From the NCBI GenBank assembly GCA_045837725.1, contig JBEWZL010000084.1:124001-188000 (forward strand): a DNA stretch of 64,000 bases, written 5' to 3'. A model generated the notes under the pieces. It was not told the DNA's origin. It worked only from the letters and a program-made list of their open reading frames with translations, and made no database searches. Each line of letters begins with the position of its first letter. The first letter of the stretch is position 1. This document shows positions 31,558-64,000 of this stretch, piece after piece. The DNA is from Vermamoeba vermiformis. Taxonomy: Eukaryota. A program made the position numbers and the translations under genes.

Positions 31558-34336
31558 ATGTCTTCATCTGGAAAAGGACGTCCCGCATTCAACAGAGACA
31601 ACTCTAGATCACTTTGTATTAAAGAAGGCTTGGCTTTTCTCGCTCAAACGACTGGAAAAACTACAAATAATATTCCCAAGCGAAAAGCTAAGAGAATCGT
31701 CGTTTTTGAAGCAGCTCAACATGTCGCCAAGGTTAATGGACGCAAATCTGCTCGAAAAACTCGCTCTGCCCGCACTCTTCGTGGAAAGCTTGTTAATAGA
31801 CGCCGCCAAGCATTGAACAACAACAATAATAACAACGTTAAAGCTCAACCTGCTGCCGCCGCGCCAAAACCCGCTGTAACTCGATCGACTGCCAAGAAAA
31901 TCCGCAAGGTGATTCCTCCCAAGCCTGCCGCCATGCCCAAACCCGTCGTAAACAACACTACCGTTACCCCAGTCAACAATAACAACGCTGGATTCAATTT
32001 TGGAAATGTTGCTGCAGTAAATCCAGGAAATGCTATGTCAAGTACGTCCAATCTAACTCCTTAGTGACTTTTTAGCTCAAATACTGATCGCAATATTATT
32101 ATAGACCTAAAAGCCTTGCCTACTTCATGGCGTTTCTCTACGCCTGCTCCTGCATTCGGCTTGTACGTGGATGACTCAAATGTTTTCTGCGGTGACAACC
32201 AAGGCAACATTTATCAGTTCTCGCATGACGGCGACCTTAAAAACCATTTGAAATTGCCATACGGTGTTAAATCCATCGTTCGCGATTATCAGTGGCTTTA
32301 TGCCGGATGCGACAACGGAGTTGTGTACGATGTAACCGACAAAGATCAGCCCAGAATTGCTTACGAGATCCCTGAAGACGGTCAATTCGACGAGCATGAA
32401 GTCATGGCTAATATTGACGACTTGTTGCATGATCACGAAGCCACATCCAACAACGAGAAAGGCGCTCGACAAAAACTCACTACCATTCGTCAAACTAAGA
32501 AGAAGCACGTCGTATTTGCGTTGGATACATCTAGTTCCATGAGCTGTAAGTATTTTAAACTCTTACTATCATTTTTTCGTTCAATTTCTAACGGATTCAT
32601 TTGTAATAGCCAACAGACAATTCGAATCTGCTTTACAAAACATGAAAATGATCTTCAACCATCATATGCAAGACCACGACTTGGTGTCTTTCGTTACCTT
32701 CGACAGCACCGTCTCCGTCAAGTTCGAGAACAAGGTCAAATCTGCCGATCGTGCTCAGATCATGACTGGATTCGACTCTGCTCGTCCTTCTGGCGCCACT
32801 GCCTTATGGGACGCTATTCAGCGATCAGTCGAACTCGTCACTAAGCCTCAAGACACCGACGTTGATCGCTGGATCATTTGTTTAACGGATGGTGAGGACA
32901 ACAGATCTGCATCTCGCCCCAACACCTTGATGACTTTGCTGCGCGACAAGCAACAAACAGCACCTTGCAACCTCGTGCTCATCGATGTTATGCACCGTCC
33001 TCGCTCCGAATTGCAACAACTGTGCGAAGCTACCGAGCACGGACTTTACATCCCCGTGCACTCGTACAAGGGCATCGAAGAGGCCTTCAAACTCGTGGCA
33101 CAAGTGCTCAACGCCAAGGTCTTGTGGATGGACGTCAGCGACGGTCTTCTTGCTGTCAGCGACAACCGTGGTTCCGTCACCGTGTGCAACATTGAAGGTG
33201 AAAAGATGTGGTCGCAGAAGTCTTCAGGCAAGGCAGGCTGGATGGTCCGCGCTGATGCCAGTGCTGTCTATCACGGCCATTCAAAGGGTATCGACGCCTA
33301 TTCGCTCCGATCTGGCGATCAACGCTGGCAAGTCAAGTTGCCCGAGGGTCCTGTCATGTCTGGCACGCAAAGCCGCGAGTTCTTGTTTGCAGCCACTGGT
33401 CCGCTCGTGCAATCCTTGGACAAGGAAGGCAAGCTCATCATGCGCACACCCGCTGGCCAGGCCTCAATCACTGCTACTGCCTTGGCGCCAGATCAAGACA
33501 ACGAGGACGGCCTGCTCATCGTGGCCGCTGGCACTGACGGCTCTTTGACTGCCTACGACTCTGTCAAGGGCACTCAAAAGTGGTCGTTCTCGCTTGGTGG
33601 TGGATCTGCCCTCTCTGTCGCGGCTCGTGGCTCACGTGTCTTCATCGTGACAACTGACGGTCAATTGATCTGTGGTGACGTGTCAAATGACACTGTCAAG
33701 AAGGCTCTCGCTGGCACATTCAACGCCGCAGCTCGCAACATTGCCGCGCCTGAAACTACTGCTAACACGATTGTTCCGACCAATCAGGTTGACACCATCA
33801 ACACGCCTTTGCCTGATGGCTCTATCGTCGTTGAGTGCTCTCGTGCTTTGTCCGATGCCGATGTGATGGCCATTCACAACGCTATCCACAGCACCGCTGA
33901 TCACGTGACCATTCAAGGTGTTGACTGGCCAGTCCATGTTGGCAACGCTAACTGCCGCTTCATTCGCTGGGACGACACTTTGACATTCATCGAGCAGAAC
34001 AAGACCAAGACCAGCAAGTACGCCAAGATGTCACGTGACGGCCACAAGATCACGTGGATCATCAAGCAGGGTCGTTGGGGCCTCATCATCGACAACAAGA
34101 TTGAACACAACGGAACCAAGCTCAAAGTTCGTGTGTCAGCCAAGTACGCCCAACAATTCAACCAAAAGTTCGACGTCAATTGGGACGTGCAGTTCCCGAA
34201 CGAGTTGCGTGAAGAAGGCGCCGAGTTTGTGGTCGATGAGCTTGTCCAGGCTGAGAACGGCAATTACTACCGCGTCAAGGGCAACATCAAGCGCGTTGTC
34301 AATGCGAATAACACCAACGCGATGGAAACTAATTAA
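31558..34336 (+). CDS. ~883-aa protein: basic N-terminus, PQQ/WD40-like beta-propeller with inserted VWA domain, conserved C-terminal domain
   Basis: Exons 31558-32041, 32105-32545, 32610-34336 join in frame; complete MIDAS (DTSSS, GATAL, LTDGED); propeller blades with W at blade ends; WDVQFP..LRE.GA.FVVD..YYRVKGNIKR terminus. Confidence 0.85.
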
Positions 34337-40834: not shown

Positions 40835-43531
40835 TTAATCGTCCTTGCTCAAGACGTAGTTTTTGAGGTTCTTAGCGAGCTCTGCGCTTGGAGACCGAGA
40901 CAAAAGCACTTCAATAACCAACTGTTCCAAAATTTGATTAACTTTTGCCCCGTAAATGAAGTCGCCGATAGTTTTGTACGCGTAGGGAGCATCGATGCTT
41001 AAATCAGCGAGATTATCGATCAAGGCAAGCAATCTAACGTAAGGTAAATTAATTAGTCATAATTTATGAAAGCTATTTTTAGGTGTTGCTTACTCTTGTT
41101 CTGCTTGCAAGGAAGTAATGAATCCAATGCTATTCAAGTGCAAGAAGAGCTTGACGTATGGCGCAGAATCATGCTGATCGAACGCAAAATTGATAATTTC
41201 GGTCAAACAAGACGAGACATTGCTCGTACTCGTCATTGCTTGCGTTGTTTCTTCGAGATCGTCATCAACGGCGTACTCTTCGAGTATCTTTCGAATACGC
41301 TCTTCATAGCTCGTTTTTACGTCAGAAGTTGCTACCGGATCGAGATCAGTTTTTCGGATCATGACCATTGGTTGAGGAGGCAAGACGTAAGGGTCTTCTT
41401 CTTTAGGAGCAGCAATAGTGGCTGTTTTAGGTGCAGGAGTTACAGCAGGTTGGTTCAAAGCCAGTTCTTGGTCCATATCTTCTAACGCAGCTTCTAAGTG
41501 GATCTCGCCAATTGTCTTCGGACCCGAAACTTTTCTTCGCGGCACCCAATTGTTCTTACGCTGCTCGACAAGGTCTTTGAGCATAAACCGAAGTCTTGAA
41601 GCCAACAGCTTGTTCTTGCTCGCTTGTTCAATCTTGGTCCAGTAATCGTCCATGATCTTCTTTTGTTGGGCTGTTTTGTCCAATCGTCCTTCGACCGTAA
41701 CCAACAATTTGCAGAGCTGTTGCACAGCGAGCTCAGCGTCGGCAAGCTAAAGAAGTATCACTATTAGTTAATGCTCGGAACTACTATATAATCGTGCTAA
41801 AGCTACCTGTTGTGGACCTTCAGCAGCTGTGCCAATCTTGTCCAACAAGACGGACATGCAACGCTGAATAATCTTCTCGGGGAACAACTTGATCTTGAAC
41901 AGCTCGCCAATGAACACGACATTGCCCAGAATTCTTCGACGAAGCTTGGTCTCTTGTTCTTCGTCAACACCATTCGGAATCTTTTCTTCGAACACGATCT
42001 AGTGATGAAAATAAGATTAGCATTACACGTGTGAGCAGGCGTGTTAGATGAACTACATACTTGGCATTGGTTCAACAGAACGCTTCTAAAGGTCGATTTG
42101 CCATCACCGAGGGTCGGACAGTTGTCGTTCAAACGCTTGCAGAGGTCGCTGTACATGGCGCTGAAGTGAGGCTCGGACAAAGCCTTGTTGTGCACGAGTT
42201 CGATTGAAGCTTGCAGCGATTCTTGCGAGTCAATGGACTTGAACAAATTCACCATCTTTTCAGCGAGTTGATCGAACTTTTCGACGGTCAATTTGTTCAA
42301 TAGACTGCGCATCTTGCCAAAGAACAAATCCACTTCTTCTTTTTTCTTAGTAGGTCTCTTTTGCTTGTCATCCTGCTACGACCGGAGTTAAAAGAGTTTT
42401 GTAACGGAATTTTCGTAGAATTTTTTGGCGAATTAGAATATTAATATTACGTACTGTTTGAGGCTTATCATTCGTTCGTCCAGTGCCGCCGGTTTGTTGC
42501 TGTCCGCCTCGACCGCCACGGCCACCACGTCCGTTTCCTCGTCCACCGCGAGATCCAGAGTCTCTTTGATTACTGTAACCGCCTTGCTGATTTTTATCTT
42601 GATTTTGGAATCCACTCGATAAATTCTGGTTGCTTTCGCGTGATATAGGCGCTTGAGTATAGCCATCGGTCCATAAACTATTTTCCTTTAAGTTGGTTGC
42701 CGTCTCGTCGTCTGGCAAAACTTCATTTGGCTAAGAATATTCCAAATTTAGTAATTTGCTAAATATATTAAAATAGCTGATTTTTTTAAGTCATACCGTT
42801 CTTAAAGCGAATAAAAAGTTTCTAGTATAAATAAAGTTCTGCAGATCCGTCGGAATTTCTTTCATCTCCGGACGCTCACTCTGTCCGGTTGTATTTGTCG
42901 AATATGAAGACCTATCGTCTTGTTGATATGACTTTTGGCCCGAGGAATAATTGTTTTGCTAAAAATAGCAAGTATTAGTCAAAGGGCAATTTAATCTTGA
43001 TAGCGCCATTTCGTAGGCCTCCCAAATAATTAATTAATTTATAAAATCACCTAAATTATTTATTCGATATTTTTGTTAATAAAAAATTGGCGGTTGGAAG
43101 TGAAGGAATAATTTAGATCGAATTAAATTCGGTTCTTACCTTGTTAGAGCCTTGTTGATTTTGAAATATATTCGTTTGAGTAGACTGTTGCGCATTTTGT
43201 GCCTTATTAGCATCGTTTGAGCTCGCATCTGTTGTGGGTGTCTCTACTTTTTTGGGCTCGGACTTTTTGCGCATCCAAGCAGGCATAAACTGAATATAAT
43301 ATTAGAAACGCACATTCACATTATTTATAAATAATTAATAATTATAGGTTTAATTTTAAAATTCGGCCAGATCAAATTTCAGATCTGAAAAATTTTAAAT
43401 TTTGTGTCTCGACGATCTATTAGCTCTTAACATGGAATTTAGAATTTAATAAATATGTGGAGCACCGATGATGCGATGTAAAGCAATAAATAGCTTACCT
43501 TATTCTCTGTGGCTGATTTAGTTTCTGACAT
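40835..43531 (-). CDS. EIF4G: Compact eIF4G-family translation initiation factor
   Basis: 4E-binding YTRNFLF (YxxxxL-phi); RGG box; MIF4G RSLLNKLT.EKF, KALSEPHFSAMY, LGNVVFIGELFK, SRLRFMLKDL..W, GPKTIGEIH; MA3-like C-terminus. Confidence 0.9.
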
Positions 43532-55235: not shown

Positions 55236-55888
55236 CTAAAGAGCGAGGTGGATCACCGCCCAAGAAATGGCAACCAAAGTGGCGAATTCAGCGTTGCTTG
55301 ATGCAGACGATACAACACTTTGTTTAGTAGTAGGAGGGCAAGTGACTGGAGTGAATTGAGGAGAGCCGGTATAGTCCGACGGCATCAGAACTTGAGTGCG
55401 TTGACCAGTGAAGGCAGGAAGGATGAAGAAACTTACCAAAACTTCTGAAGGCGAATAATTTTGTAGCGTTACCGTAGTATTGGTACCTTTAATATTAATG
55501 AGTTTCGTTAATTACTATGATACCAGAGTGTCATCTTACTTCTCTGCAAAATCACTGCTCCGTTGCTGGACGACGAAATGGAAAAATCTCCTTCTGAAGC
55601 AACAGTACCCCAGGATGGCAATGCGGAGGCGTCTAAGGAGTCTTCGTTGTCAGAGAAGTCTGCAATCCATACAGCTTGATTAGAGCCAAGCACAACTCGA
55701 TCTGATCCACGTCCTGCGTAGATTTGGACTGTGTTTCCATTACCAGTGATGAACACGTCATCACATTCTGTGCCTTCTAAAAAAGCCGGACTTGAGGTGG
55801 CAGTCAATATTGAACCTTGACATTGGTAGGAAGAAGCAACGAAACAAGCAAAAATCAAAAATAATTGAATAGTCAAATACGAAGCCAT
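55236..55888 (-). CDS. 199-aa secreted, probably GPI-anchored protein with RTX/haemolysin-type Ca-binding and T1SS-tail-like domain (2 exons; intron 55487-55539)
   Basis: Signal peptide; LEGTECDDVF..IYAGRGSDRVVL..IADFSDNEDSLDAS..VTLQNYSPSEV..FIL; SSA + hydrophobic C-terminus; exons sum to 600 nt. Confidence 0.75.
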
Positions 55889-56141
55889 TTTATGTATTCG
55901 ATGGTATTGTAGTACTTGACAATGATAGAGGTGATTAGTAAGGCAAATTAAAAAAAGGGAACTAATTTCTCGTTCCGGAACTGTGAGCTCCGTCGGACGT
56001 TTAGCCTTTTTGAGTAGCGGAAACGGATCGCAAACCCCCGTTAGTGGCACGTTCTAGAATGTTTGCAAATATTTCGGGCACTGTTAAATAGATTTAAATC
56101 TGGTTTTGATTCATTAATCATAACTTTTTTGAAGACTCCAC

Positions 56142-57624
56142 ATGACTCATTTCGTAATAACTTTGCTAGCTTGCGTTGCCTTATGGCAAACGATTGCTGC
56201 GCTTGAAGTTCAACCGGCTCCTGCTTCTATCGGCGCGGATGTACCTGCAACTTACTTCGGTCCTCCACCCTCTTCCGTTCAGAAAGAATTGATCGGTCCC
56301 TATCAGCTGCTTAAGTCCGGTACCGTAGACACGGAGCAAGGTAATGTCCAACATCCAAAACCAAAAAATAAATTATTAACGGTATAGCACAGGCACCGTT
56401 ACGCTGCCAATGTATCGCGGTGCACTCGAAAGCGATCCTACCTACTCCATTTGGTACGTCGTGACAGACACTTCAGACAAAGAAAATGCAGCTGCCCTTG
56501 GTATCAACTTTTCTGGCAAATTGAAGTTCGCCGCTGTCGGTCGAGGAGCACGCACTGCACGACTCGCCGCCGATTTCTCGTTGTCGTTCAGCAGTGGAAA
56601 AGTCGATTTCAGTACGTTAGTTAGAAGATGATGGGATTTGTTTTTTCTTACCTGCTGTAATCTCGTAGGCCCTGTTCACTCTCTTACTGCTGGTACCGCT
56701 CCGAACTATTTCCCTCCTTCCGCTTATCAACCCGGATCAGTCGGAGATGCTGACTACTCTCCTCTCGTTCGTCTTCGTAACGTCGAGGGAACGATTTGGA
56801 ATGCTCCTACTATTGCAGGCAACGTCACTGCAGAGCAATTATCTGCCTATTGCACTAATGACGTCGATGCTACTGGCCGTACTTTCATTCACGACAAGGT
56901 TGTGCGCATCTGTCCGAACGCAGAGGGGCAAGGTGGCACAGTTACTCTTTCTCTCACTCAAGGATTTAGCTTTGCTCGTCCTGTGTTATACTTGAGCTTG
57001 GACGCAAGTCATGAGCTACCAGCAACCCTTGAACAAGTAACTGTGGCTCCTGGACTTCAAGACTTAACAGTCGGAGGCGATGACGGCTTGTTTTCTCCTG
57101 TAGAACGAATCTTCTCCGTGATTAACGGATATACCAACGCAGACATCAATCCAAGCGGAGGAAGTGGTCCTAATGAGACTAACCACCCCTCTCGTTCAGG
57201 CCTAAACAGGTAAGTTCAATATTCACCACGTTGAATCCGATCTAACATTCATCTTAGCGCTATTCGTGGTGACGGAGGACCATTGAACGTGTTGGGAGGT
57301 ATTCCGACCATCGCTACTGACTACAGGTAAGAATAAACGCTACAAAATTTTAGTAACAATTCTTACCAAAATTAAATTTCTAGCCCTTTGTGGGATCTGA
57401 ACGTCGGTGAATGGACACAGTACGCCGTTAATAATGGTTACCGTGTTCGGTGGTTGGAAGAGTTCCAAATCCTCGGCTTCGCTCTCCGAGGTTTCGTAAC
57501 TGGTCCTGGAGGTCAACCATTTGGCTCATCTGGCTTCATTGTTAACTGCCCTATTGGTAAATAATAATATAACTTGTTAAATACGTATCTAATGAATCTT
57601 CATTTAGTCCAACGATTTTTGTAA
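56142..57624 (+). CDS. Secreted uncharacterised protein of a bacterial-type family (YSPLW..VNCP C-terminus), 6 exons
   Basis: Signal peptide; PAPASIGADVPATYFGPPPS, WYVVTDTSD, GSVGDADYSPLV, GFSFARPVLYLS, PLNVLGGIPTIATDYSPLWD, GFIVNCPIV; introns splice in frame. Confidence 0.85.
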
Positions 57625-57666: not shown

Positions 57667-58307
57667 GCGATAGAAGTTTAATTATCGTCGACTACATTGT
57701 ATATATATTAAAAATAATTTAATGAGAGAAATGAGCTCTAATTGTGCAAATTAATCGAGGACATTTGATCCAAATCCCAAATTCGACTTACGACATCCTC
57801 TTTTCTCTGATTATTCTGCTAATATTCTATATATACTTGAGTTAATTCATTATTATCATATTCAAACGTTGATGTTGTAAATACACAGGAATACTGAAAA
57901 AAATGAGCAATTGATTTTTTTTCCATTGTTGTTTCAGTTCAAAAAGCGCAACACGATCCTATTTATCATTAAATACAACACAACATGAATAATAGAACCA
58001 CGAAGAGAGCTTTAACGAAGAACAAGAAGTGGAGAAAGATCGATAATGAATCCATCGATCGGATGACCATTGAAAAGACCCAAGAAGTCCTTGAAGGCGA
58101 TGTTACTATGAAATCAGACGATCAACTGTTCGTTATTGATACAGTAGTCAACAAAAGTAAGTTTTTGCTCGTGATCAGAAAAACCGCATCGTAGATCGCA
58201 GATGCAGGTGAACAGAAATTTAATCTAATTATTACACAATCGATGCAAATATTATTATAATCGTTTATGATTATATTTATCACGATCAAAATTTAGTAAA
58301 CCAACTT
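57667..58307. repeat. Direct repeat copy 2 (keeps NOP53 exon 1, kinase exon 1 deleted)
   Basis: Aligns to 54369-54992. Confidence 0.95.
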
Positions 58308-60244
58308 CTGAATCAGATCGCACCAAATTTTTATTCTCGTTAACGACCCTTAACTTGGCAATATTACACGCGCAAAATTCATAATATTCGTGTGCAAATT
58401 AAGTACCAGTTTACCTTTGATTCTTCGTTGACAGATCGTGATCGACGAATCCAACGAGTCGTTACGAACCTTGTATTAATCTGTTATTATACAGAACCTT
58501 CATTGACAAACAAAAAAGACAAATGGCAAAGCCATCAGCTCTCTTGGGAGAAGCGTATTCAACCTAACGAAAACACAGTTGTAAGTGATCAGATCTACCT
58601 TTTGCGGCGCTAGCACGAGGGCAATATTATCGTATTCTAATATTCATTTCATATTTAGGGTCTTAAACGAGCAACACCGCCAGATCTTCAACGAAGAAAG
58701 CAACAAAAAGTTAAAGAAATCAAGAAAAAAGTTGAATTACAACAGAAAAAACCCAAAGCACCAGGTAAATACTAAAACAATATTATTAACACGAGGGTAT
58801 CTATTTATTCCCAAATATTAACACTTCTATCAGCCGAGCCTATCGCCTATGATACAAAGGGCAATCCATTGCAAGTACCTAGCGATCAGAACGGTCTGTT
58901 TGATATTTGGGACACCGCCGATGACAGACAAGTCGCCGTGCAAAAATTAAAACGAAAAAATCCTTCTGGCAATACCGAGTACTTGGAACCTGTCGTAAGT
59001 GCGATCTAAAAATACTCCTTCCGTTTATCATAGCGCATTCTGGTCATAATATTACCGCATGCAATGTATTATAATATATAACCATAATTATCATGTTACT
59101 CGCGAGATCTGGATAAATATTGATTACAATCTTTTTTTTCATTACAGCTCTTGCCTCCTCCTTCAAAGAAGCGTAAAATCGAAGCACCTAGCAAGCTGCC
59201 AGCTGTCGAGACTGGTCCTGGTGGTGCATCGTACAGACCTGTCTACGAAGATCATCAAGAATTGTTAGGTACGTTACTCCATCCGGGATGAAACCAACAG
59301 CAATTCAAACGATTGGATTTATTACTTATATCGTTAAGACATTACATGAATGCACTATTTGCTAAAGTTCCATTTTTTTCGCAGCTGAGGCCGTCGCTGA
59401 AGTTATTAAACAACGCGAGGAAGAAAAACGTGTGAACAACATTTTGAAGAGCAAACAAAAGGTAGGCTAGCTTTTATACTCGGTATAATATTATGTACTA
59501 ATATTGCTATGCCTTTAGTATCGTAAGAGCGAAATTTGGGTAGATGGCGAACGAGATGTTGAAGAGGAAGAAGCACAAGAAGTTGAAGAAAATGGAGAAG
59601 AATCGAAGGAACATGTTGCCCAACCATTCGTTGAACGTAAGAGCAGAGCAGAGCGAAATAAGGAGATGCGCAAGAAGGAATTGAAAAAGATCCAGATTCG
59701 CAAAGAAGAGTTGGAAAAACAACGCAAAGAGTTTGAAGAGTTGCCTAAAATTTTGGATGAAATTAAGGAACAAGAAGAATCAAGAAAGGAGCGCGAGAAG
59801 TATAAGGCTAAAATTAAGGAGAACGCTGATTTTAAGACTAAGAAATTGGGTCCTATTCCGTAAGTACCATTAGATCCGCTTTAAATTTTAGAAAGATGGC
59901 TCTTCTATCACTATCATAATACCACAACTACTTACCAGTTGTCTAATTGTTTTGACACAGATTCGTTGCGGATCCAACTCCAGTTGTTTTGACCGAAGAG
60001 TTGCCAAGCAAGCTGCGTCAAGTTCAGCCTAAAGTTGATTTATTACGCGATCGATATTTGAGCTTGCAAAAGAGAAATATTATCGAGCCTCGTATTAAGC
60101 GATTGTAAGTACACGATAACCGCGAAAAACAGATCTAAAGCTGAATGTGCGATTTTCTGAAGATCATTGTCTAATATTCCTATCTATAGCAAAAATCGTC
60201 GTTATCCCGTTCAGATTGTCGAGAAGTGGTCTGCAAACAAATAA
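57985..60244 (+). CDS. NOP53: Ribosome biogenesis protein NOP53 (GLTSCR2/PICT1)
   Basis: KKWRKID, AIM motif LFVID, GASYRPVYEDHQELL, LTEELPSKLRQV, LLRDRYLSLQKRNIIEPR. Confidence 0.92.
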
Positions 60245-60520
60245 GCGGATGTCGAAAAAACAATAAAATTATGCGATTAAACAATTCACTATCGACACTA
60301 CTTTAGCTCGCGCGAGGTCTGTGTCATCAATTAATACTGTATTGTTCACCTTCTGATTACAGTTGGTCCAAATATGGCAATTATTATTCCGGAGTGGATC
60401 CCTCGCGCGACTTTACCTATTTGAGCGTTGTTTTCGGTTCAAATTCACAACAAAGATTTGAGCATAAACCAAACTCATCGTAAGGAGCAACACGCAGCTG
60501 GTCGGAGTTTATCAGATCAG

Positions 60521-61767
60521 ATGCAGAAAGAGGAGAAACGACCTGAAATAGGGCTGCAACGACAGCTCTCAGATCTCAGCATTTCGCTGAGTAGCACCGA
60601 TAAATCTGGAGTGAGCACAAATCGAACTGAATATGAGGAAGGTTATCAGCTGCCTGAAGAGATTGCCGAACGAGAGTTGAAGGATTTGGAAGGAAACGTT
60701 ACAACATTCGGTAAATTGGTGGAAAATAGAAAGATTGTATTTGCCCTATTGAGACACTTTGGGTGGTAAGCAATCAAGTCATTTTGACGCATAAATTTAT
60801 AATTTAATTTTTCGATCTCATCACTAAACAATTCTAATTTAATTTTAGAATGTTGTGCCACAAGTCAGCATCGGAACTGACTCAAATCAAGCCGGTATTA
60901 GACCAATTGTAAGTAACAACAAAAGTTTTTTCCATCCGTACAAAACACTCAAGCTTTTTTTAGAGGGGTGAGATTGGTCGCAATTGGTAGTGGTACGCCA
61001 GCAATGGCAAAGAACTTCGTCGATGAATTTAGATTCGGCGGTAAGTCCTCACGTAAATCACGGAGATTTATCTTAAAATTGAAATTGTCCGACAATGTGC
61101 TAACGGATTAATCCCAGGCGAGATTTACACCGATGAAAGTAGAAAAATTTACAACGATTTTCAATGTAAACGAGGATGGAGCAAAGCGTTGTTCAATATG
61201 AAAACTTTGAAATTTGTCAAATCCGCTTTTAGCGAAGGTTACGCGCAAGGCAAAACTCAAGGAGATATGACGTAAGTGCTTTTAAAATCCCTTATTATAC
61301 GTCAATAATACTTACGATGTATTAGACAACTCGGTGGCACTTTCGTTCTGGATGGGATGCGCGTGGTTTTCGAGTACTTGGAGAAGTTTGCTGGCGATCA
61401 CGTGAGCCCAGGCACATTGCTTGAGTATCTCGGCGCCACGGACGAGATGTACGCTAGCTTGAAGCTGGAAACACCAAAGGCCAAGAAGAAAATTGCCAAA
61501 CTGGACGACAAGATCAACAAGCTAAAATCGGTCATCAAATTATTGAGCACTGATAGCAATGCGAGTGTTACGGATAGTCTTACTGAAGAAGAGAATGCCC
61601 CAAGAGCCAATAACACCGAGAAAGACGGAAAGTTGTCTGCCTACAAAAAGACCAAGTTAGATCGCTACAAAAGACGACTTGATATTTACTTACAAAAGCG
61701 CGAAGAGGTCATGAAGAAGAGTCAAGCTGCTGTCCTCGGCCTTAATAACAATAATAACAACAAATAA
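60521..61767 (+). CDS. Selenoprotein, AhpC-TSA_2/PRXL2 (SelenoU/AAED1-like) thioredoxin fold with RHFG-U-ML-C and C-terminal coiled coil
   Basis: Splicing 60766-60848 gives TG|A at the first redox Cys position; downstream exons in frame (GVRLVAIGSG, EIYTD..RKIY, QGDMTQLGGTFV, AGDH); SECIS in 3' UTR. Confidence 0.88.
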
Positions 61768-61909
61768 CATCCTCATGTAATATATAATAGTAGAGGAATT
61801 TGCGAGAATCGGATGTTGGGGAGTCATACCAAAAAAGGCAAGTGTTCTCACTATCATCACCCCACTACCAAATCGAGACATTTGCCGTTTTTGCGTGACT
61901 CTTAACGAT

Positions 61910-62013
61910 GGCTTTGACTTCTTTTCGGTGCGTGACATCTCACGGAACAACTCTCGAATAACTTCGGCAAAGAGCTCCGTAGAGATTGATTTTTTCGAAA
62001 AGATTTCAAAGCC
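61910..62013 (+). promoter_or_regulatory. Eukaryotic SECIS element (type II-like)
   Basis: Helix I GGCTTTGA..TCTTTTCGG / TCGAAAAGA..TCAAAGCC; core GTGAC (61932) / TGAT (61987); helix II ATCTC-ACGG / CCGT-A-GAGAT; unpaired AA at 61946; apical mini-stem CTCT/AGAG. Confidence 0.85.
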
Positions 62014-62109
62014 GCGTACTGACACGATTATTTGTAATAAACTCCTAATTTCGCTTTGAATTTGAGAGTGATTTAATATGAAATTACAAAAACAACGTTC
62101 GCGAGTACC

Positions 62110-64000
62110 TTATTCACATCGAACAACTTGATACATGTTAGTCTCTCGTGAAGAGTCAGCATCGATTCCTAAATACAAATGTTATTATAAGGACGGCAAG
62201 TACTCGAATAGCACAGCTTAGCTTACCGGAAATAGCAATTACATATTCACCATCAGCGACCAAATGAGCTTCCTTAGCCTTCTTAATGGCGGCTTGAACA
62301 ATGGGCAAAACATCACCAGTCTGCATTCAATGGCACGTTAGCTCAGTTCTCAGCGTTGGTTTACAGATATTGATACTTACAGGGATGCTGTCAGTCAAGT
62401 AAGGTACGGCACCACGTGACAACAAAACTTGACGAGCGACTTGAGGGTTGGAAGTGACGCAGTAAATAGGAGTGTGAGGTCTGTACTTGGAAACAAATCG
62501 CAAAGCATCACCGTTCTCCGAGAGCACAATGATGAAAGTGGCGTCAAGATCCCACGCGGTCTTGACAGCACTGCTCGTGACTGACTCTGCAAGTGTAACG
62601 TGTTCGGGCTCTTCGTACAACATGTAGTCACGAATAGCAGCGTAGAGTTCTCTGTACTTGATCAGCTTAGTTTCAACTTCGTAGCACTGTTGACGCAGAA
62701 CTTTGATGCTCTTGACAGGGTAAGCACCTATCAATGGATATTAACCTCTGTTCTATGGCATTATATACCCTCAAATATGACTTACAGTTAGGCTGGCCAG
62801 TAGTGTTAGTCAAAATAATAGTATCAGCGCCTTCGAAAACGGCGTTAGCAATGTCAGTGCACTCGGCACGAGTGGGACGAGGGTTCTTTTCCATTGAGTT
62901 CAAAATTTGGTTAGCAACGAGGACGGGTTTGCCAGCCAAGTTGCATTTTCGAATCAAAGTTTTTTGCACGTAAGCGACCTGTGCACGGGTCAGATCGAGA
63001 TCAAAAAAGCGGAGAAGAGACACGTACCTTTTCAACAGGGATTTCGTTAGCAATTGATGAACGAGAGATCTGAACACCATCGGCAACAGCCAAAAGATTG
63101 TCAAAGTTGTCAATAGCTTCTTTGTTTTGAACCTTGGCGTAAATTTTGATACCACACTCGGCGACTCCAGGAAGAGCTCTATGAGGCAAGAGTAAGAATT
63201 TGAGTAGCATATAATAATATCATGTAATAGGTCCTTAGTAGTATTGACTTACCTAATCTCTTCAATATCAGCTGCCTTGGCGGCGTAACTGACAGTGATG
63301 AAGTCGAGACCGTGAGTGACTGCGAAATCAACGTCAAGTGTATCTTGGTAGGTCAAGAACGGGTTGTCCAAGTTAGATCTCATGCCGTGCACGGTGGCTG
63401 AATTGAAATTAAGCGTTAATAAAGCAGTCAAGACGAATTCAGACCCAGATCGATCCCGCGCCGGTTAATCAAAATCAAGAAAACTCGTTATTATAACGCT
63501 TACCAATTTTGTTTTCGCCCAAAGTAGCATCATTATCGACTGTAGTAATAATAGCTTTGTCTTTCACTTCTACAACAGTAAAGCTAATCAAACCATAATC
63601 AACGTAAATTTTCTCGCCAGGCTGAAAAATACCGTTAGTGGCTTGGAGAATAACAAAAAAATACAAATTATACGTATAATTGTAAGCAAGGAATAATGGT
63701 GCATAAATTATAAACCTGAAGATTTTTCTAAAAAATTTGGAAATTTTTTCTGGCATACCTTGACAAGCTTGGGCAAGTTCCAATATTTAATTGAGACTCC
63801 ATTTTCATCTCCTCGAATGAAGTTGACGTAAAATGTAAATCTCTGGCCAGCATTCAATCGGACAGACTTGACGCCCTCCTTAAAACCTCCAGTGCGGATT
63901 TCAGGACCTTTCAAGTCAGCTAAAATGCCGCAAATTCGGCCAGTCTCTTTGCTGACCTCTCTGATTTTTTGTACAACCTCGGCGTGGAACTAGATGCATA
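62110..64000 (-). CDS. pyk: Pyruvate-kinase-family protein, 5'-truncated, with degenerate catalytic motifs
   Basis: DLKGPEIRTG, IYVDYG, EIPVEKV..QK..I.KCNLAGKPV, NPRPTRAECTDIANAV, SKYRP, RQVLLSRG. Confidence 0.85.

Follow-up and report, generated by a model that had tools for sequence, protein, structure and literature searches.

Known SelenoU-type selenoproteins and selenium use in amoebae

Selenocysteine (Sec) forms of SelenoU have been reported in fish, birds, invertebrates (including SelU3), algae, a diatom, and early-branching fungi, as far as the available parts of the sources extend (PMC13134290, PMC3473315, PMC2375036, 10.1101/314781, and PMC3316567). AhpC selenoproteins are described from protists, sponges, and bacteria (PMC3753652), and the accessible text of a fungal study placed AhpC and SelenoU together in a single tree because they are similar (10.1101/314781). 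Vertebrate SelL carries two Sec residues two positions apart (excerpts of PMC3316567). Sec use is patchy in Amoebozoa (10.1101/014928, available sections), and both Dictyostelium and Acanthamoeba use Sec (PMC2375036 and PMC8038987, in the portions accessible). The available part of PMC5330540 holds nothing on amoebae, and our literature search returned no report combining 'selenoprotein' and 'Vermamoeba'.

Here we describe a gene in a 64-kb stretch of Vermamoeba vermiformis DNA (the window) that very probably encodes a 325-residue UxxC selenoprotein of the SelenoU/PRXL2 (AhpC-TSA_2) superfamily. Comparison with the described systems revealed several shared features: (i) the Pfam domain, the fold, and the place of the U/CxxC motif are those of SelenoU/PRXL2 (SELENOU1/PRXL2A, SELENOU2/PRXL2C, and SELENOU3/PRXL2B), human PRXL2B being the best solved match, (ii) the UxxC redox box and thioredoxin-like fold are also those of the AhpC selenoproteins, and (iii) the RHFG-type motif resembles that of the bacterial SelL-related redox protein NF040769, which matches residues 47-212 of the sister-species protein P0010 with 90.4 bits (E 1e-25), yet under the curated cutoff of 120 bits. 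RHFG-U and similar motifs did not occur in supplement file 2 of PMC3753652, where alignment gaps could hide them.

The gene also differs from each of its counterparts. Structural identity to PRXL2B is only 26-32%, and the amoeba gene adds a polar N-terminal extension and a Lys-rich helical hairpin of about 100 residues. In place of the UxxU of vertebrate SelL, it has Cys (TGC, codon 85) at the second position. The gene comes from an amoeba, whereas the five selenoproteins listed for Dictyostelium in the accessible part of PMC2375036 include no SelU. It is thus a probable addition to the known SelenoU/PRXL2-type UxxC selenoproteins; neither its family nor its mechanism is new, barring a real tandem-donor switch as considered below.

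Gene structure and the intron-split TGA codon

The gene comprises five exons at 60521-61767 on the forward strand (Table 1), which are spliced to 978 nt, corresponding to 325 codons and a TAA stop. The only in-frame stops in the spliced open reading frame are TGA at codon 82 and TAA at codon 326, and 243 codons of open frame continue beyond the TGA. The later exons stay in frame and complete the AhpC-TSA_2 domain, as the preliminary description of this locus had proposed. Codon 82 is split TG/A by the 83-nt GT..AG intron 1; if this intron were retained, translation would run into Trp and then a TAA stop. The gene is real and easily missed, as the codon forms only once the intron is spliced out.

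Table 1. Features of the candidate selenoprotein gene and its 3' region (window coordinates)
Feature	Position	Strand	Description	Basis
Exon 1	60521..60765	+	ATG start; polar low-confidence N-terminus, first thioredoxin-type strands, RHFG, TG of codon 82	
Tandem possible donor	60763..60768	+	3 nt 5' of the used donor; non-consensus	splice enumeration
Split codon, predicted Sec	60764..60849	+	TG 60764-60765, A 60849	spliced contigs
Intron 1	60766..60848	+	83 nt, GT..AG, phase 2; donor TG/GTAAGC, acceptor TTTTAG/A	
Exon 2	60849..60908	+	final base of predicted Sec codon, M-L-C85 (putative resolving Cys of UxxC), subsequent helix	
Exon 3	60964..61040	+	within AhpC-TSA_2	
Exon 4	61118..61271	+	within AhpC-TSA_2	
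Exon 5	61326..61767	+	domain end, Lys-rich helical hairpin tail of ~100 residues, TAA stop	
SECIS-like element	61910..62013	+	type II, long apical mini-stem	pattern match, folding
Helix I	61910-61927 with 61996-62013	+		folding
Core (GUGAC/UGAU)	5' core from 61932; 3' core 61987-61990	+		folding
Helix II	61937-61946 with 61976-61986	+	10 pairs	folding
Unpaired AA	61949-61950	+		folding
AATAAA	62036..62041	+	possible polyadenylation signal, just 3' of the hairpin	X11 contig 61715-62054 (unstranded, weak)

Splicing of intron 1

Four of 23 listed sequencing runs, X1 (study P1), X4 (study P2), X11, and X21, the last consisting of raw reads from a more distant relative, were compared with positions 58400-62400. 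The intron 1 junction was informative in two of the four runs, X11 and X21 having no coverage there. The X1 and X4 contigs cover exon 1 from 60484 and 60487, respectively, to 60765. The X4 contig skips exactly the 83 nt of intron 1; the X1 contig stops at 60765, and the 21 letters that overhang there correspond to the first part of exon 2. The junction 60765/60849 (TG/gtaag, ttttag/A) given in the preliminary description is thus matched by contigs from two studies. X1 supports introns 2-4, and X4 supports introns 2 and 4, so that all four introns have support overall. This evidence consists of assembled contigs at a depth of about 5, from runs presumed to be RNA (X1 and X4); as both show spliced joints, their sequences derive from transcripts. 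The gene is expressed and nuclear.

A different junction replacing the TGA by Cys or Trp, which would have contradicted the initial interpretation, was not seen in these contigs. Splice-site enumeration nevertheless shows how the main transcript might use another site and, with UGA removed, yield a one-Cys protein: 9 of the 15 frame-keeping GT/GC-AG combinations for intron 1 lack an internal stop, and the tandem donor 3 nt upstream, joined to the same acceptor, would delete exactly codon 82 and keep the frame. However, the 83-nt intron is present in both informative runs, and the used donor, unlike the upstream one, is of the GTA type found in each of the 11 listed introns with read support. 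We therefore regard another main splice form as exceedingly improbable. The 86-nt junction of the upstream donor is absent from the contig joints of X1 and X4, in an assembly format that loses rare splice forms.

The position of the intron appears to be inherited. One relative (P0019) has Trp as its last residue, at the site, just as would result from reading exon 1 into intron 1; two others (P0168 and the distant P0139) have Arg before xxC, the letter expected from the acceptor AG read with a following A or G. From these traces we infer that the intron position is common to the clade. In P0139 itself, a very short intron at this codon seems to be in frame and to have been translated. A phase-2 intron within a codon requires no special mechanism, and the intron in the Sec codon would most likely be an inherited position without special function. 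The split codon had been presented as something special; it is real and yet less unusual than implied, relatives showing the same intron position. A literature search found no printed example of an intron-split Sec codon, a weak result given that most subscription literature lay outside its reach; searches for selenoproteins routinely employ spliced aligners (PMC2958745, available part).

Correspondence of the UGA site to Cys and coding constraint

Homologs were collected by a phmmer scan with P0010, which is 84% identical to the window product; the scan gave 1369 proteins at E<=0.001, of which the best 150 were listed. The UGA site corresponds to the first Cys of the family's CxxC. Among 159 relatives compared, 115 have Cys at the site, 8 have Trp, and 2 have other letters; a further 13 begin just after the site, and 21 could not be anchored. 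The Sec/Cys pairing looked for in the preliminary description is thus found, and marks of a recoded stop (Trp or a start just past the site) are carried by 21 of the 159. In the sister species, P0002 and P0006 begin at the Met right past the site, whereas P0010 has Trp there. Since all 235 residues compared between P0010 and P0006 agree, the pattern looks like one TGA read under two codes, the codon of P0010 being deduced from this agreement.

Could the UGA be a true stop, leaving either a young pseudogene or an 81-residue peptide followed by a 243-residue product re-initiated at the adjoining AUG? An AUG does directly follow the UGA, and gene callers begin at that Met (P0002 and P0006). Yet Met at this place is common in the family (14 Cys-forms among 148 scanned), the stop falls exactly at the catalytic position, and the part upstream of it provides the central strand of the modelled fold (E71-76). 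Selection also speaks against a true stop. In the coding region, 15 of 18 strain differences are silent against 21% expected (P about 3e-8), in a partial count of 17 displayed differences and one from a loose end that leaves 22 further differences outside it; in exon 1, upstream of the TGA, all 7 listed differences are silent. The predominance of silent differences on both sides of the TGA indicates purifying selection on both halves. In addition, two or more further species have retained the gene, with identities of 84% and about 71%. We give the true-stop explanation only a slight chance.

The same Trp records (P0010 and 7 other relatives) raise another explanation, namely that a changed code or leaky read-through inserts Cys or Trp at the UGA, no selenium being involved. 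Several observations oppose it. In the pyruvate kinase gene of the window, all 9 Cys/Trp positions shared with the close relative P0207 are TGY/TGG, a small sample, and the 3 other Cys/Trp codons of the candidate gene are also TGY/TGG. The 17 ORFs of at least 200 codons contain 54 TGG codons, these ORFs being TGA-free by construction, and permitting TGA failed to lengthen most ORFs that resemble real exons. On this codon usage, general reassignment of TGA is unlikely. Moreover, Trp would kill the redox site, and the SECIS-like hairpin described below would be left unexplained. Reading of the UGA as an ordinary amino acid is therefore highly improbable in our estimate, and Sec at codon 82 is the reading retained here.

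Several other relatives in the databases show Trp at the site or a start just past it and are likely further mis-annotated Sec forms (P0057, P0139, P0041, P0067, P0113, P0015, P0025, P0040, P0044, and P0016). Four further entries (P0035, P0018, P0173, and P0174) are apparently pieces of one gene from another organism, with a probable unsplit in-frame UGA at the site and a Lys-rich tail, a second candidate selenoprotein; P0035 and P0018/P0173 agree at 33 of 33 overlapping residues. A gene of this kind is thus mis-recorded in databases in three ways: cut at the intron, started past the UGA, or read with Trp.

Family, fold, and the Lys-rich tail

P0010 matches PF13911 (AhpC-TSA_2) with 77.4 bits against a cutoff of 27 and is modelled with a peroxiredoxin-like thioredoxin fold, in agreement with the family first assigned to the locus. 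Its structure was modelled from an 80-row alignment (pLDDT 88.7); this model replaced a poor single-sequence AlphaFold model (pLDDT 47.6). In the alignment-based model, the site lies between strand 71-76 and helix 83-94, that is, at the start of the active-site helix. The best solved relative is 9us9, the human prostamide/PGF synthase (SELENOU3/PRXL2B), whose first catalytic Cys aligns with the site; the model matches this structure at Z 18.7, rmsd 1.9 over 140 residues. A peroxiredoxin is nearly tied in this comparison (Z 18.3); Foldseek separates the two more clearly, with E 7e-13 for the synthase 9usa versus 7e-8 for the peroxiredoxin. The Atlas search returned the same family, and a quick tree, which included no named vertebrate references, placed the protein loosely among protist sequences. 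We place the protein at the superfamily level, where the modelled fold and the best solved match set it beside PRXL2B.

Named relatives of the redox domain come from Soliformovum and Cavostelium. In seven relatives (P0020, P0026, P0029, P0037, P0028, P0047, and P0101), from protists and including three named amoebozoans, Soliformovum and Cavostelium among them, the domain, mostly as CxxC, occurs in fusions. The partners are Rap-GAP (6 of 12 relatives scanned), RhoGAP, PH, DEP/RGS, and kinase domains, which suggests a redox module in small-GTPase signalling.

The C-terminal tail had been called an unusual Lys-rich coiled coil. It is indeed Lys-rich (19% of the last 100 residues) and helical, being modelled as two long helices in P0010; it is less unusual than stated, as the relatives P0015, P0018, and P0060 have shorter tails with 26-28% Lys. 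For the tail, the Atlas gave no usable match, and the Pfam coiled-coil matches were weak and under cutoff. The fold searches spanned residues 39-218 only, and so barely covered the tail and show no novelty of it.

A SECIS-like hairpin downstream of the stop codon

The two-helix GUGA..AA..UGA structure noted earlier at about 150 nt past the stop codon is present and starts about 142 nt past it, with the core 897 nt past the UGA in the spliced RNA. In addition to the elements in Table 1, the hairpin has an internal loop between helix I and the core. Its fold has a z-score of -5.4, and none of 200 shuffles was as stable.

We re-implemented four SECISearch patterns from the supplement of PMC3753652. 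Only Loose+, the loosest of them, matches the hairpin, as the G that precedes the core and an apical part of 23 nt do not fit the Strict, Default, and Loose patterns. Loose+ alone is permissive: it gives 188 matches on both strands of the window. Both helices form in 5 of these, and the hairpin exceeds all the other matches in stability. Among 400 shuffles of the 3'UTR, 145 had some Loose+ match, 7 had one with both helices, and none was as stable. The second most stable match in the window, at 42161 on the forward strand (-37.9 kcal/mol), has C before the core, lies antisense to a MIF4G-domain exon, and is probably due to chance.

Rfam includes SECIS families. The preliminary description had counted failure against covariance models as evidence against the element, and formally such a failure occurred: the Rfam scans, run without a positive control, gave no SECIS match at E<=10 or at the gathering score, and only chance-level matches to sRNA and lncRNA families. 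This result favours a true stop at codon 82. We do not take it as refuting the element, because SECIS elements with a G before the core and long mini-stems have been described in Ostreococcus, as has one with an extremely long mini-stem in Dictyostelium (PMC2375036, in its available sections). The hairpin resembles these type II elements (the Dictyostelium one being DI-like) in the G before the quartet, the unpaired AA, and the long apical stem, and it resembles sponge elements in its GUGA_AA, which is common there according to the accessible part of PMC3473315. Unlike the Dictyostelium elements, it lacks the Dictyostelium-specific UGUA before the core. Lineage-specific SECIS forms were omitted from one of the SECISearch3 models, and a SECIS was detectable in only 5 of 16 fungal candidates (10.1101/314781, available part). 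The hairpin is a useful test case for SECIS models beyond animals.

Metagenome and viral scans for related DNA suited to a covariation analysis of the SECIS yielded none. In prokaryote genomes, a motif scan matched 25 loci; none was related by tblastn or blastn, and they were rejected as chance matches.

Proposed mechanism and function

The UxxC selenoenzyme interpretation, already put forward in the preliminary description, draws support from the junction in the spliced contigs, from the match of the site to Cys in relatives, from selection on both sides of the TGA, and from the fold and the SECIS-like hairpin. Splicing of intron 1 fuses TG with A, which places an in-frame UGA where the family has its first redox Cys. 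By analogy with the established eukaryotic pathway, SBP2 would bind the hairpin core and eEFSec would deliver Sec-tRNA, so that the UGA would be read as Sec. No tRNA gene is present in the 64-kb window. Judging from the fold, Sec82 at the start of the active-site helix would attack a peroxide or disulfide and would form a selenenyl-sulfide with Cys85, to be re-reduced by a thioredoxin- or glutathione-type donor. In our view, the enzyme is most likely a cytosolic peroxide or lipid-endoperoxide reductase, the substrate being a guess; that the basic helical tail might dock it on a partner or membrane is likewise a guess. With this gene, a SelenoU-type selenoprotein, and hence the use of selenium, becomes probable in an amoeba lineage for which our search returned no selenoprotein report.

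In mammals, a UGA upstream of introns can expose the mRNA to nonsense-mediated decay (PMC4105750, in the part available). As three introns lie downstream of the UGA, failed Sec insertion could expose this mRNA to the same decay if the mammalian rule holds in amoebae. The intron in the Sec codon might act as a switch, the alternative donor yielding a selenium-free one-Cys isoform when selenium is scarce; we consider this very unlikely. Such an isoform would avoid termination and decay under selenium scarcity, and the free Sec form might use its helical tail to relay redox changes to small-GTPase signalling, a role proposed because Cys forms of the domain are joined to Rap-GAP, RhoGAP, PH, DEP/RGS, and kinase domains in other protists.

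Genomic context and other observations in the window

The window is gene-dense, with about 40% GC and short introns. The candidate gene sits between a Nop53 (ribosome biogenesis) gene upstream (about 57970-60245, forward strand), 7 introns of which are contig-supported, and a convergent pyruvate kinase gene (62113-63989, reverse strand), whose end is about 100 nt from the SECIS-like hairpin. The nearest named relative of the pyruvate kinase is from Echinamoeba exundans (Echinamoebida), at 51% over the queried exon. An amoebozoan host, probably of Tubulinea (Echinamoebida), is likely from such relatives, and Vermamoeba belongs to the same class. A contig of 4105 nt is the longest listed for both P0207, the pyruvate kinase relative, and P0002, a hint that related strains or species share this gene order.

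Further TG/GT..AG/A splits were sought across the window; the several candidates were crude, and most had stops close by. A divergent gene pair (56133-57564, forward strand; 55508-56053, reverse strand) apparently encodes secreted products; the one exon scanned had no Pfam match. Finally, a GC-richer ORF of 597 codons (32543-34336, forward strand) combines beta-propeller (PQQ_2) matches with a stretch that looks von Willebrand-like by eye, an unusual architecture.
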